A DNA stretch of 59,152 nucleotides from Chloroflexota bacterium (lineage in GTDB: Bacteria; Chloroflexota; Dehalococcoidia; JACPQK01): the NCBI GenBank assembly GCA_016190505.1, contig JACPQM010000021.1, positions 1 to 59,152 on the forward strand, written 5' to 3'. Below the pieces are notes generated by a model that was not told where the DNA came from, did no database searches, and saw nothing but the letters and a program-made list of their open reading frames with translations. The translations under genes and the position numbers were made by a program. This document shows positions 28,117-32,250 of this stretch, one piece after another. Position 1 is the stretch's first letter. Each line of letters begins with the position of its first letter.

Positions 28117-29985
28117 ATGGCAGTCGGCGGTTATGCTGGCAAGATGCTGCGGGTGGACCTTTCGTCGGGCACCTTTTCCGACGTCACGTTCCCCGAAGAG
28201 ACCCTGCGCAAGTACATCGGGGGCACTGGCATCGGCGTGCGCATCCTCTATGACGAGGTCCCACCCTCGCTAAGCTGGGACCACCCCGACAACCGCTTCA
28301 TCCTGGCCACGGGGCCGTTGGGCGGCACCCGGGTCAAGGGATCGGGGACCATCTCCATTGTCACCAAGGGGGCCATGACCAATGGCTGCACCTCGACCCA
28401 GGGCAACGGCTTCCTGGGGGCGTACCTCAAGTTCTGCGGCTACGACGGCCTGATCATTCAGGGCCAGGCGCCGCACCTGATGTACCTGGCCATCACCGAC
28501 AAGGGGCCTGAGCTGCGCGACGCCCGCCACCTGGCCGGGAAGGACACCTGGGAGCAGGAGGACCTGATCAAGGCGGAGCTGGGCTTCACCGAGCACCAGA
28601 TGAGCGTGCACGGCATCGGCCCCGCCGGGGAGAACCTGGTCCGCTTCGCCGGTGTCATCGGCGACCGGGGCCACGCCGCCGCCCACAACGGCTCGGGGGC
28701 GGTGCTCGGTGCTAAGCGGCTCAAGGCCATCGCCGTAGCCCGGGGCAAGAAGCGCCTGGCGGTGCGGGACGCCCCCCACCTGGTCCAGGCCTCGGACGAG
28801 ATGTTCGAGACCATCAAGAACCACCCCATGTGGAGCCGCGTGTACAACTACGGCATGCTGTGGGGGCTTACCGAGGGCAAGGCCACCAAGACCCAGGTGG
28901 TCAAGAACTACACCACCAACATCGTTACCACGGACGACGAGAAGATCAAGAAGTTCGAGGGCCCCTACATCCGCGAGCACTACCAGCCCAAGCCCCACAA
29001 CTGCTGGGCCTGCCAGATGCACCACTGCCACCTCATTACCATCACCGAGGGCCCCTACAAGGGCTTCGTGGGTGAGGAGCCTGAGGCCGAGGGCCTGTCC
29101 GCCTTTGGCCCCCTCATCGGCAACGAGGACGGCGCGGGCATGATCGTGCTCAACAACGAGGTGGACCGCCTGGGCATGGACATCAACGAGGCGGGCTGGA
29201 TTATCGCCGGCACCATGGAGATGTACGAGCGGGGCCTGCTCACCCTGGAGGACACCGACGGCCTGGAGCTGCGCTGGGGGAACGTGGAGGCGGTACGCGG
29301 GCTAATCCGCAAGATAGCCCACCGCCAGGGTATCGGCAACATCCTGGCCGAGGGGGCCAAGCGCGCCTCGGAGAAGCTGGGCAAGGAAGCCAGGGAGATA
29401 TTCATCTACACCATGAAGGGGAACTCGCCGCGCACCCACGACCACCGGGTGCGCTGGATCGAGATGATGGAGAGCTGCATCTCCAACACCGGCACGCTGG
29501 AGGCGGACGTTATGTCAAACCCCGCCCAACTCGGGGTCGAGCCTATCAAGGACGCCTTCAACGGGGAGCAGGTGTCCACCGTCCTGGCCAAGATCCGCGG
29601 CGGCTTCACGGTGGTTGACTCCCTGGGCATCTGCAAGTTCACCAACCGCGAGGTGCCCGCCCTCATCGTCCGCATGCTGAATGCCGGCACAGGCTGGGAC
29701 TTCACCTGGGACGAGGCCATGCAGATGGGCCGCCGGGTGGTCAACCTGATGCGGGCCTACAACATCCAGTGCGGCCTCGGCCCGGCCGTGGAGGGCCCCG
29801 GCCCCCGCTACGGCTCCACGCCCACCGATGGCGCGGCCCAGGGGAAGAGCATCCGCCCCGTATGGCCGGACATGGTCCGCAACTTCCACCAGCTTATGGG
29901 CTGGGACCCGGCCACCGGCAAGCCCACCAAAGAGACCCTGACCAAGCTGGGCCTGGAGGAGGTCATCCCCACGCTGTGGGGATAG
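28117..29985 (+). CDS. aor: Tungsten-containing aldehyde:ferredoxin oxidoreductase (AOR family)
   Basis: 622 aa; AOR N-terminal 'YAGKMLRVDLSSG', 'GGTGIGVRILYDEV'; colinear with the AOR family throughout. Confidence 0.9.
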   Translation: MAVGGYAGKMLRVDLSSGTFSDVTFPEETLRKYIGGTGIGVRILYDEVPPSLSWDHPDNRFILATGPLGGTRVKGSGTISIVTKGAMTNGCTSTQGNGFLGAYLKFCGYDGLIIQGQAPHLMYLAITDKGPELRDARHLAGKDTWEQEDLIKAELGFTEHQMSVHGIGPAGENLVRFAGVIGDRGHAAAHNGSGAVLGAKRLKAIAVARGKKRLAVRDAPHLVQASDEMFETIKNHPMWSRVYNYGMLWGLTEGKATKTQVVKNYTTNIVTTDDEKIKKFEGPYIREHYQPKPHNCWACQMHHCHLITITEGPYKGFVGEEPEAEGLSAFGPLIGNEDGAGMIVLNNEVDRLGMDINEAGWIIAGTMEMYERGLLTLEDTDGLELRWGNVEAVRGLIRKIAHRQGIGNILAEGAKRASEKLGKEAREIFIYTMKGNSPRTHDHRVRWIEMMESCISNTGTLEADVMSNPAQLGVEPIKDAFNGEQVSTVLAKIRGGFTVVDSLGICKFTNREVPALIVRMLNAGTGWDFTWDEAMQMGRRVVNLMRAYNIQCGLGPAVEGPGPRYGSTPTDGAAQGKSIRPVWPDMVRNFHQLMGWDPATGKPTKETLTKLGLEEVIPTLWG

Positions 29986-29989
29986 GGCG

Positions 29990-30150
29990 TACGGGGCGCG
30001 ATTAATCGCACCCCTACGGCTTGTCACCCCCGCCCTGTGGGGATAGAACCGTAGGGCGAGGCGCTGCCTCGCCCAGGGTGGGGGCACCGGCCGCACGCAA
30101 ATCAACAACACGTAGGGGGCGGGTTTCAAACCCGCCCCTGGTGTCGGGCC
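29990..30150. repeat. Cluster of 3-4 REP-like hairpins (gtacggggcgcgattaatcgcacccctac; gtagggcgaggcgctgcctcgccc; gtagggggcgggtttcaaacccgcccc)
   Basis: Consecutive GC-rich palindromes at the AOR 3-prime end / islet boundary. Confidence 0.6.
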
Positions 30151-30160
30151 TATCGCGATC

Positions 30161-30796
30161 TCAGGGATACAGGTACTTCGCGCCGTTATGGTCGTCGGTA
30201 ACGGTGTACAGCTTGCATGTGTAGTTGGGCCACATCACGGCTTCGGGATGACCGTCTGGGAAGTCATCGAGAGATAGCCAATGCCCATCTTCGTGAGTGG
30301 CCATTACACGGGCATCTGCCTGATGGTTAAACTGATTCAAGTAACAGTCCCGTCTCCAGGTCCACTCTGAGTTGAGATAAGATACACCCCAATTAAGGTA
30401 CCCTGTGCTGGCATCCCAATTCAAAACCGTGGTGCCCGGGATATGGGGATTTAGCCCCCTCTGCCCGAATGGGATGCCTGACCACCACACATCATGACCG
30501 CTGGCGACCTCGTCTACATTCAAGCTGGCGCCAGTTGTGATGTCGTCCCATTGCATGGCGGAGTTGCGAAGATCCTGGCGCGTTTCAGGCGGGAAAACAC
30601 CCAGGTAGGACTGCCCATCCTGGAAATCCCCATTCCATTTGATTTGAAGCTTATTCCACTTGATCTCATTGCCGTCCTTTATTGTCACCTTGTAGGCCCG
30701 GGCGACTTGAGACCCCAACACCAAGACGCTTGAATATGCCAGGGCAAATACGGACAACCCTATTGCCAGCCTAGTTACAAGTGACGTACTTCTCAT
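30161..30796 (-). CDS. Secreted zinc metalloprotease, metzincin-like (HExxHxxxxxD plus Met-turn)
   Basis: Start at 'MRSTSLVTRLAIGL...' (SD 'gaggagg' upstream); 'ATHEDGHWLSLDDFPDGHPEAVMWP'; low-GC gene. Confidence 0.58.
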   Translation of the reverse strand: MRSTSLVTRLAIGLSVFALAYSSVLVLGSQVARAYKVTIKDGNEIKWNKLQIKWNGDFQDGQSYLGVFPPETRQDLRNSAMQWDDITTGASLNVDEVASGHDVWWSGIPFGQRGLNPHIPGTTVLNWDASTGYLNWGVSYLNSEWTWRRDCYLNQFNHQADARVMATHEDGHWLSLDDFPDGHPEAVMWPNYTCKLYTVTDDHNGAKYLYP

Positions 30797-30852
30797 GGTA
30801 GTCCGCACCTCCTCGAACCGATTGTTATCTGCCCCCGGCACCTACTGGTGCA

Positions 30853-31482
30853 TTACTTCAACTGCGCTATCAGGTCTGCCAAAGGCACGTCAAACATAGG
30901 GCCGTGAGCCACTTCGCCGTCAACAACGTACGTTAGAGCAGGGTACAGGCGAGAGGGGGGGTTGGAGAATCGCGGCAGTTCTTCTAAGAAGAGGAGCACT
31001 CTTACGCCAGGCTTCAAGGGGTCGAGGTCGCTAGTCGTGACGACAGTACCGTCAGCACGGCCTCCGTAGACAGAGATAACAAGGCTGTCTCCAACTCGAT
31101 CGCCCTTCAACACACGCTCGACAGACATGCGGATTGGAGTGCGAATATGGGCACTGGCCTTCTCGAAGGCGTCGCGGACATCTGCGGGCTGGCTGCCATC
31201 AGGCGTCGTCCACGTCGCCGGGAGCACTTCACGCACCACGGCCACCGCTACAATCACGGCGTCTTGGGCTGCTGATTTGACTTCAACACCGTCTTTAGGC
31301 TGCCACGGGTATGAGAATACCCCCGTCATGCTCCCGATTGATGTTGCCCCTGCCCCGGCTCCATGCGTGCTGGTCGAGGCACGAAGCACGTAGTAAGCAT
31401 AGTAAGTGGAGCCCGCTATCAGCAGCGCCGAAACCAGCGCTACCAAGACCAACGACCTATTGTTTGGTATTACCTTAGCCAC
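30853..31482 (-). CDS. Hypothetical membrane-anchored secreted protein
   Basis: 209 aa; N-terminal TM; low GC; co-directional with the metzincin. Confidence 0.42.
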   Translation of the reverse strand: MAKVIPNNRSLVLVALVSALLIAGSTYYAYYVLRASTSTHGAGAGATSIGSMTGVFSYPWQPKDGVEVKSAAQDAVIVAVAVVREVLPATWTTPDGSQPADVRDAFEKASAHIRTPIRMSVERVLKGDRVGDSLVISVYGGRADGTVVTTSDLDPLKPGVRVLLFLEELPRFSNPPSRLYPALTYVVDGEVAHGPMFDVPLADLIAQLK

Positions 31483-31781
31483 TATTCACCTCCCACCGAC
31501 TAAAGGGACATCTCCACCCACCGTCGGGTCCACCTGTGAACAGCACGATAATACCCCCCACCGGAGACACATGCCAATCCGGTAATATGCTTAATTGGCA
31601 TGCAGCTTTTGCGTACGCATGGTGTTTGTCCCAAGACGCCCGTTGGGCGATGGCGGCGGTTGCGATGGGGCCAACATGGAACAACCACCAGACCGGGAAT
31701 GAGTAGGGCCTGGTTTCAAAACCCGCCCCTACGCCCGTGCGTCCGCCACCGGGCGGGCACAGGCGTAACCGGCGTCGTCCG

Positions 31782-32095
31782 CATGCTGAATGCCGGCACG
31801 GGCTGGGACTTCACCTGGGACGAGGCCATGCAGATGGGCCGCCGGGTAGTCAACCTGATGCGGGCCTACAACATCCAGTGCGGGCTAGGGCCGGAGGTGG
31901 AGGCCCCTGGGCCGCGCTATGGCTCGACGCCCACCGATGGCGCGGCCCAGGGGAAGAGCATCCGCCCCGTATGGCCGGACATGGTCCGCAACTTCCACCA
32001 GCTTATGGGCTGGGACCTCGCCACCGGCAAGCCCCTCCCGGAGACCCTGAAGGGCCTGGGCCTGGAGGAGGTCATCCCCACGTTGTGGGGACAGA
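31782..32095 (+). pseudogene. Duplicated 3-prime fragment of the AOR gene (~92% identical to 29670-29985)
   Basis: Encodes 'RMLNAGTGWDFTWDEAMQMGRRVVNLMRAYNIQCGLGPEVEAPGPRYGSTPTDGAAQGKSIRPVWPDMVRNFHQLMGWDLATGKPLPETLKGLGLEEVIPTLWG', versus the AOR C-terminus '...PAVEGPGPRYG...DPATGKPTKETLTKLGLEEVIPTLWG'. No start codon; lacks the N-terminal 500 aa. Confidence 0.8.
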
Positions 32096-32250
32096 ACCGT
32101 AGGGGCGAGGCGCTGCCTCGCCCTGGGGTTGGGCCAAGGCCAGCCCTGGCGGACAACCCGTAGGGGCGGGGTTACCCCCCGGTTCTTTTTCGACAAACCT
32201 CTTGCGCATCTGGACAACCCGTAGGGGCGGGGTTACCCCGCCCCTACGCT
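32095..32250. repeat. REP cluster (gtaggggcgaggcgctgcctcgccc; gtaggggcggggttacccc; gtaggggcggggttaccccgcccctac)
   Basis: Same family as 29990-30150; bounds the far side of the islet/duplication. Confidence 0.55.

Follow-up and report, generated by a model that had tools for sequence, protein, structure and literature searches.

A putative insertion-duplication scar with a two-gene protease module at the 3' end of an aldehyde:ferredoxin oxidoreductase gene in an uncultured Chloroflexota bacterium

Campbell-type insertion-duplication, in which a single crossover within a 3'-terminal gene fragment leaves behind an intact gene, an insert and a truncated 3' copy, requires no recombinase gene and is known mainly from the laboratory, where it forms the principle of insertion-duplication mutagenesis. 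Cis-mobilizable elements (CIMEs), described in Streptococcus thermophilus, are remnants of genomic islands that are flanked by attachment (att) sites and lack an integrase. Homology-facilitated illegitimate recombination (HFIR), in its classical form with a linear fragment, produces deletions rather than duplications. Orphan 3' ends in the arrays of Rhs and contact-dependent inhibition (CDI) genes and in the effector-immunity arrays of the Vibrio cholerae type VI secretion system (T6SS) have been explained by HFIR (PMC5361080). In Escherichia coli K-12, the cryptic prophage e14 resides in the 3' end of icd, and a displaced pseudogene, icdC, lies at the far end of the element (PMC13626634). Here, we analyze an arrangement of related appearance in an uncultured member of the Chloroflexota (Dehalococcoidia, JACPQK01; assembly GCA_016190505.1), in which the 3' end of aor, the gene for an aldehyde:ferredoxin oxidoreductase (AOR), occurs twice on contig JACPQM010000021.1, on either side of a 1.69-kb islet that contains two genes (the cargo). 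The analysis covers positions 1 to 59,152 of the forward strand of this contig (59,152 nucleotides, hereafter the window) and follows up an earlier note, made from the sequence alone, which ascribed the islet to an element that had integrated into the 3' end of aor and carried a replacement end, or alternatively to a duplication mediated by repetitive extragenic palindromic (REP) sequences.

In a reading to which we give about an even chance, the locus is an insertion-duplication scar formed by one reciprocal crossover of aor with a circle that would have borne the cargo and an aor 3' end. The hallmark of the locus is a direct repeat of 320 nucleotides (29666-29985 and 31775-32094) that is identical at 293 positions (91.6%) with no insertion or deletion, the longest stretch shared without mismatch being 92 nucleotides. 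In a comparison of the window with itself by BLAST, this is the top repeat by far (456 bits, E 2e-128), and the next-best matches are between paralogues with 71% identity. The repeat of about 92% identity that the earlier note had placed at 31782-32095 and 29670-29985 is accordingly real, with slightly different edges. The second copy (aor') contains no in-frame stop over its 320 nucleotides, and the Pfam profile AFOR_C covers it at positions 287-385 only. The shared stop context proposed in the note is half kept: the homology does continue past the end of the gene, through a REP stem-loop, but the stop codon TAG of copy 1 is CAG in copy 2. Beyond this codon, 30047-30082 aligns with 32095-32133, which brings the whole repeat to about 360 bp, and the identical 21-nucleotide stem-loop within this part (REP-A) is found at these two sites only in the whole window. 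The 61-bp segment 29986-30046, specific to copy 1, is made up of a REP hairpin that overlaps the stop codon (29983-30016) and of a 24-nucleotide copy of the aor end (30023-30046, three mismatches). The left edge of the repeat (29666/31775) falls within a codon, with no REP, palindrome or obvious microhomology there. For annotation, 31775-32094 should be labeled a displaced aor pseudogene fragment and not a gene.

The pattern of substitutions between the two copies is a further line of evidence. Among the 315 aligned coding positions, 26 nucleotides in 18 codons differ, 11 codons synonymously and seven non-synonymously, and 15 of the 26 differences are at third positions. By the Nei-Gojobori method (NG86), the non-synonymous divergence (dN) is 0.051 and the synonymous divergence (dS) 0.217, giving a dN/dS of 0.23, to be compared with 0.25 between aor and the orthologue of the closest relative (locus L009) over the same 105 codons, and with the value of about 0.6 to be expected from a duplication in place after which one copy evolved neutrally. 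The differences are moreover clustered (permutation p ~0.001-0.003). In the patch 29770-29820, 11 of 51 nucleotides differ, eight of them at third positions (dS 1.08), in the patch 29911-29952, 10 of 42 differ with dN (0.34) above dS (0.17), and outside both patches the count is 5 of 222; within the patches, the divergence between the copies (22-24%) matches the divergence from the gene of another species. Since a dN/dS of 0.23 is what is seen between functional orthologues, the simplest interpretation of these substitutions is that the two ends were once-functional alleles, later brought together and partly homogenized by gene conversion, rather than the product of a fresh fragment duplication that has decayed. 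As copy 1 has the codon preferred by the host at 9-10 of the 11 synonymous differences and copy 2 has lost its stop codon, it is copy 2 that no longer functions. A mosaic left by a reciprocal crossover, with copy 1 resembling L009 on the left and copy 2 on the right, was considered and dropped (9 versus 13 and 14 versus 11 differences).

The DNA between the copies is compositionally foreign. Its GC content is 0.558 (30140-31700) against 0.64 for the window, and the GC content at third codon positions (GC3) is 0.62-0.63 in the cargo genes, compared with 0.93 in aor and 0.75-0.9 in the neighboring genes, so the 1.7-kb AT-richer segment with two minus-strand genes (30161-30796 and 30853-31482) that the note had described is borne out. 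The downstream cargo gene encodes a predicted matrixin-like (metzincin) zinc protease, the secreted HExxH metalloprotease of the note, with a signal peptide, a motif at the catalytic position and a Met-turn, the latter two of which align to those of MMP-9; the match to Pfam Peptidase_M10/Matrixin is weak (E 6e-4, 20.1 bits) and lies under the 24-bit gathering cutoff. Compared with the motif HExxHxxGxxH, the protease has Asp in place of the third His and Ser in place of Gly. Judging by this motif, the Asp at the third zinc-ligand position could be a ligand change of the snapalysin type or the mark of a weakened enzyme. The homologues P0122-P0124 carry the third His (HExGHWLVLxH) where the protease of the window has Asp (30263-30295, minus strand). 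The other cargo gene, upstream of the protease gene, has no match in Pfam or NCBIfam, and AlphaFold models of both proteins, built from shallow alignments, were unusable (mean predicted local distance difference test scores of 43.5 and 37.4, with the protease at 37).

Both cargo families are rare, forming 5 and 3 clusters in a set of 5.8 billion proteins; the protease has four other homologue clusters. Cargo gene 1 is upstream of the protease gene in every case, and its homologues (P0127, P0128 and a 206-amino-acid open reading frame (ORF) of contig L028) keep this gene order. The pair recurs, its gene order kept and its spacing similar, in three other contigs (L028, L029 and L030). The L028 pair, on a contig with a GC content of 0.54, shows 49% and 63% amino acid identity and is followed by a transposase-associated fragment, and the L029/L030 pair adjoins a pair of genes for an extracytoplasmic function (ECF) sigma factor and its anti-sigma factor. 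Apart from the cargo pair, no gene in the flanks is common to these three contigs and the window. The pair is thus a module that is present in unrelated contigs. A promoter-like site upstream of the cargo operon (Table 1) is of a kind that would also be expected once in shuffled sequence.

In contrast to the insert, both outer flanks of the locus, the promoter to the left and the genes h130-h226-CopCD to the right, are orthologous to those of relatives. The aor gene (product HYY01_03200) is the last of its operon, in the order promoter, alpha and beta genes of a thiamine pyrophosphate (TPP)-dependent decarboxylase, aor; the decarboxylase is of the split, sulfopyruvate/phosphonopyruvate-decarboxylase-like type, and the promoter is a perfect sigma-70 consensus (TTGACA-17-TATAAT, 26899-26927). 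In the closest relative (P0002; loci L009, L026 and L027), with an aor product of 86% amino acid identity, aor is followed by one REP of the subtype that adjoins the islet in the window, a three-gene ATP-binding cassette (ABC) transporter (periplasmic binding protein, FecCD and ATPase), h131, h226 and CopC/CopD; compared with the window by tblastn, the L026 genes give 52% for h131, 86% for h226 and 68% for CopCD. In the next relative (P0003, 79% amino acid identity; L025), an amidase gene comes directly after aor. These are also the nearest aor clusters among the 5.8 billion proteins (86% and 79%), and the nearest aor has 63% identity in 185,579 species genomes and 86% in the metagenomes of the Joint Genome Institute (JGI). 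Exact-protein look-ups of aor and h130 returned no record, and that of h226 returned a contig (L031) that starts 41 nucleotides upstream of the gene and is uninformative on the junction. The comparison with islet-free relatives proposed in the note therefore yields a single aor and no repeat in both relatives, but their downstream content differs, and no empty site is defined.

The space after aor holds something different in each of these genomes: the islet and aor' in the window (29986-32314), the ABC transporter in the closest relative (L026, 11876-15426), and nothing before the amidase gene in the next (L025, 1982-2036). Gene turnover thus has a local hotspot in the 3' flank of aor. On the opposite side of the gene, the promoter region of the window (26896-26938) is 91% identical over 44 nucleotides to the region upstream of aor in L009 (7397-7440). 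This promoter precedes the two decarboxylase genes and aor in the window and aor alone in the closest relative, so that the decarboxylase genes either were inserted between promoter and aor or were lost in the relative. Just upstream of the operon promoter (26866-26891), the heptamer CCCGTAG is repeated in tandem about 3.7 times.

Table 1. Coordinates of the features at and around the duplicated aor end (positions of the window)
Feature	Coordinates	Strand	Remarks
aor, aldehyde:ferredoxin oxidoreductase gene	28117..29985	+	Intact, 622 amino acids; Pfam AFOR_N (E 7e-61) and AFOR_C (E 5e-85)
Repeat copy 1	29666..29985	+	Last 320 nucleotides of aor with stop codon TAG; functional 3' end
Segment specific to copy 1	29986..30046	+	61 bp absent from copy 2; REP hairpin and duplicated aor end
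Post-stop part of the repeat, copy 1	30047..30082	+	Holds the REP-A stem-loop GGGCGAGGCGCTGCCTCGCCC (30054-30074); the hairpin folds
REP-B hairpin	30112..30139		GGGGCGGGTTTCAAACCCGCCCC; between the convergent aor and protease genes; folding z = -5.0
Cargo gene 2, secreted matrixin-like (metzincin) zinc protease	30161..30796	-	211 amino acids; signal peptide, HEDGHWLSLDD, Met-turn VMWP
Cargo gene 1, N-terminally membrane-anchored protein	30853..31482	-	209 amino acids; N-terminal transmembrane helix
Promoter-like site TTGGCA-18-TATTAT	31548..31577	-	Upstream of the cargo operon; consensus match only
REP-B' and second hairpin	31703..31760		REP-B' (31703-31731, degenerate REP-B) and hairpin 31737-60; at the insert's inner edge, immediately ahead of the junction
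Repeat copy 2 (aor', displaced aor 3' fragment)	31775..32094	+	5' part missing, frame open, stop TAG changed to CAG
Post-stop part of the repeat, copy 2	32095..32133	+	Holds REP-A' (32103-32123)
Two REP-C copies	32159..32248		32159-32181 truncated; 32220-32248 with a perfect 13-bp stem; ahead of the conserved downstream genes
h130, first gene of the right flank	32315..32707	+	Followed by h226 and CopC/CopD; orthologous to genes that come after aor in the closest relative

The REP clusters that the note had seen on either side of the islet are present as palindromes headed by GTAG (29983-30016, 30051-30078 and 30112-30139; 32099-32127, 32159-32181 and 32220-32248), with a further one at the islet edge (31703-31731), and folding bears them out as hairpins. 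With at most one mismatch, the core CGTAGGGGCG has 25 copies in the window, where shuffled sequence would lead one to expect 7.6 and none of 100 shuffles reaches 25. REP-B, which lies between convergent genes, is probably a bidirectional terminator, and a REP of this type, identical over 24 nucleotides, is found about 46 nucleotides past the aor stop in the closest relative (L009). Throughout the family, the ends are conserved (CGTAGGGGCG ... CGCCCCTACG) and the internally complementary stem differs in nearly every copy; members are spread over the window (for example, 12936-12961, 19383-19408, 19451-19476, 28065-90 and 32222-32246) and are also present in L009. At two of the sites, 28065 and 29983, the REP starts with the TAG that ends the gene upstream. 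Within the last 24 nucleotides of aor (GTCATCCCCACGCTGTGGGGATAG) lies the palindrome ATCCCCAC-GCT-GTGGGGAT, and these 24 nucleotides recur 61 nucleotides downstream, with a 37-nucleotide REP hairpin that starts at the stop codon in between (29962-30046).

Under the insertion-duplication reading, the circle would have carried the two-gene cargo under a promoter of its own, one or two REPs, and an aor 3' end of about 360 bp with the downstream REP hairpin, this end being derived from a related lineage. A single reciprocal crossover between the circle and the chromosomal aor within the region of homology would have produced the order that is observed: orthologous left flank, intact aor, cargo, truncated and promoterless aor', orthologous right flank. 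After the insertion, aor' would have lost its stop codon, and gene conversion would have homogenized most of the two copies to about 98%, with two short patches remaining 22-24% different. As the incoming aor segment has a REP of the host type, it would have come from a close relative, and the composition of the cargo points to a more distant ultimate origin for these genes. The circular intermediate, the single crossover, the copy that arrived with the cargo and the enzyme that acted are all elements that we infer. For the last of these, a site-specific integrase, since lost or supplied in trans (as in e14 and icd, leaving a remnant similar to a CIME), and RecA acting in a Campbell-type insertion appear about equally likely.

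Several observations weigh against this history. There is no integrase, excisionase, transposase or REP-associated tyrosine transposase (RAYT) in or near the insert, and no att core is definable. A second 3' end is absent from all of 13 related aor loci, and hence there is no sign of aor as a habitual attachment site; no relative is closer than 86% amino acid identity, hence there is no true empty site, and the region after aor varies in all relatives. The outgroups do not show which copy is the resident one: the two are 78.1% and 77.2% identical to L009, and neither L009 nor L025 polarizes the differences, the copies being equidistant and the single-site hints conflicting. The patch 29911-29952 is rich in non-synonymous differences, which a simple history of functional alleles does not predict. 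Finally, all statistics on the differences between the copies are based on just 26 of them.

The search for a mobilizing enzyme extended to the whole window. None of its 47 scanned ORFs matches rve, Phage_integrase, Resolvase or Y1_Tnp, and the sole mobile-element gene in the 59 kb is an IS630-like DDE_3 transposase gene, 22 kb from the insert and beside an McrBC system. A scan for tRNA and tmRNA genes and a search against Rfam at gathering thresholds found nothing in the window, so a tRNA-type att site is not involved. The viral contigs searched had no match to the aor 3' fragment or to the protease, and both cargo proteins were absent from the plasmids searched. The integration into the 3' end of aor that the earlier note had envisaged is thus supported in part, by the topology, the foreign cargo and the allele-like differences between the ends, whereas a decayed element with an integrase of its own is not demonstrated.

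One alternative, which we consider improbable, is a series of events in place: a tandem duplication of about 360-420 bp, illegitimate or REP-associated, with the cargo arriving later at the joint, or the fill-in of a staggered break, followed by neutral decay of copy 2. The locus is rich in hairpin-forming REPs, the aor end is itself palindromic, no recombinase is present, and the 24-bp duplication of the same gene end 61 bp downstream indicates that local duplication does occur here; the lost stop codon of copy 2 and its non-preferred codons at 9-10 of the 11 synonymous differences are as codon decay would give. The dN/dS of the two copies, however, is well short of the ratio that one neutral copy would give, the clustering of the differences is strong and includes a 51-nucleotide block in which dS exceeds the divergence from the orthologue of another species, and copy 2 is free of the indels and in-frame stops that decay would bring. 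The left edge of the repeat, in coding sequence and devoid of REP or obvious microhomology, also speaks against this origin and specifically against the REP-mediated duplication that the note had offered as its alternative, and in the two-step version the cargo must land exactly at the joint. A 10-nucleotide inverted match near the edges (29649-29658/31750-31759), considered as a trace of template switching, is within chance expectation for a GC-rich window of 59 kb.

Another is a decayed tandem paralogue, likewise unlikely in our view, in which aor1 and aor2 would have been partly homogenized before the insertion of the cargo, or a deletion that came with it, removed the first ~1550 bp of aor2. 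The signature of purifying selection and the mosaic of 98%-identical stretches and diverged patches would be accounted for equally well by such a history, copy 2 retains residues common across the family (PEVEAP, KPLPETL), and the metagenome-assembled genome (MAG) has further aor paralogues elsewhere (P0007 and P0089). Against it, in no relative, including the 13 related loci in which the end of aor is complete, does another aor or an additional aor 3' end occur at the locus or within 10 kb; the note had named a full second AOR paralogue in related genomes as the sign of gene decay, and the relatives have a single aor. Any further AOR-coding remnant in 30083-31790 is at chance level only (best tblastn E 4.4), and more events would be needed, namely a whole-gene duplication, a long co-existence and a deletion ending exactly at the edge of the cargo.

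The physical continuity of the locus was examined in two short-read assemblies made independently, L001 (SRR12113401) and L002 (SRR12113390). Both inner junctions, between copy 1 and the islet and between the islet and the truncated copy 2, are present base for base in the two assemblies, which contain the whole islet with the variants specific to each copy and confirm the junction 31774|31775; the contigs end inside the repeat, as a repeat would cause. A chimeric assembly, in which two co-existing strains that differ in their aor 3' alleles and in what lies downstream were joined via the repeat, so that the full aor, the islet and aor' would not share one chromosome, is therefore very improbable: the source is a short-read MAG contig, the Logan contigs break at the identical stretches and the outer links (copy 1 to the 5' part of aor, copy 2 to h130) lack independent confirmation, but the decisive inner junctions recur in separate assemblies, the longest stretch identical between the copies is only 92 nucleotides, and the fusion of the islet to a truncated aor' in both assemblies means that such a fusion exists whatever the outer links. 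More generally, a 360-bp repeat of 92% identity is a spot at which MAG contigs may break or be misjoined.

Just as improbably, the 2.1-kb unit could be a still-mobile, non-autonomous cassette, made up of a replacement aor end, REP hairpins, the cargo and an inner-edge REP with its hairpin, and moved in trans. The mover, encoded elsewhere in the genome, would be an integrase or a RAYT that recognizes the GTAG-headed hairpins at 30112-30139 and 31703-31731. If so, a REP- or att-bounded cassette system would place genes at the end of a housekeeping gene and leave that gene intact. Only the REPs that bracket the cargo point in this direction; nothing else that was found does.

As for its consequences under the insertion-duplication reading, an uncultured high-GC Chloroflexi lineage has gained a rare secreted-protease module with no harm to a metabolic operon, that of the TPP-dependent decarboxylase and the tungsten/molybdopterin aldehyde oxidoreductase. 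Elsewhere in the window, the genes for an McrB-like AAA_5 ATPase and McrC (3690-7873; GC3 0.62-0.65), beside the IS630-type DDE_3 transposase gene, and a gene for an Mrr-type restriction endonuclease (16300-16923; GC3 0.68) probably mark other acquired segments. Diverged paralogous segments are found at 50130-50589 and 55378-55837 (72%) and at 51389-51743 and 51959-52312 (67%), among genes at 49.6-58.7 kb of which several have no Pfam match.

Among the known systems, the Rhs/CDI and T6SS arrays share with this locus the addition of genes by incoming, homology-anchored DNA and the displacement of the old 3' portion downstream as a fragment. These arrays, however, replace a variable toxin tip and carry immunity genes as cargo, whereas at aor the end is conserved, the cargo is unrelated and convergent, and a single end is displaced. 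From REP/RAYT systems of the REPIN type, the locus has the GTAG-headed REP family; a REP-bounded unit and a RAYT (Y1_Tnp) protein were not found within the 59-kb window, the left edge of the repeat unit not being bounded by a REP. The likeness to CIMEs consists in a small insert that lies between direct repeats of the 3' end of its target and lacks a recombination module, and the difference in that no integrase-bearing element targeting aor was found in the viral contigs, the plasmids or the 13 related aor loci. With Campbell-type insertion, the locus has in common a repeat edge at an arbitrary intragenic point (29666/31775) devoid of a recombinase core, and stretches of identity, up to 92 nucleotides, that would be usable by RecA. 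Here, the natural source of a circle with both aor homology and the cargo would be hypothetical, and a divergence of 8%, rising to 22-24% in patches, would lower the efficiency of RecA.

The closest likeness is to e14 (and phage 21) in icd, where the insert supplies the last part of the target gene and has the displaced 3' fragment on its other side. Measured here, icd and icdC on either side of e14 share a repeat of 216 bp that is gap-free and 87% identical and runs on beyond the stop codon. Of its 12 coding differences, 11 are at third positions. At aor, the repeat is likewise gap-free past the stop, at the upper end of an identity range of 87-92%, with a third-position share of 15/26. As in icd, the 3' end is repeated and the target intact, aor being a full ORF of 622 amino acids with both AFOR domains, and the inserted DNA is foreign, with a GC3 of 0.62-0.63 against 0.93 and the same module elsewhere. 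The two differ in that e14 is 15.2 kb long and has intE and xisE, while the aor insert measures 1.7 kb (2.1 kb with one repeat) and has two genes, neither of them for a recombinase, with none of that kind in the 59 kb; an integrase gene next to the att site is accordingly missing, as is the reuse of the site by related elements in the 13 related loci or in viral contigs. No new mechanistic question is opened by the locus unless the cassette proves mobile in trans. As far as can be read from the nucleotides, the aor scar matches that of e14, icd and icdC in every respect, and it is another example of an ordinary and known kind, as e14 in icd is.

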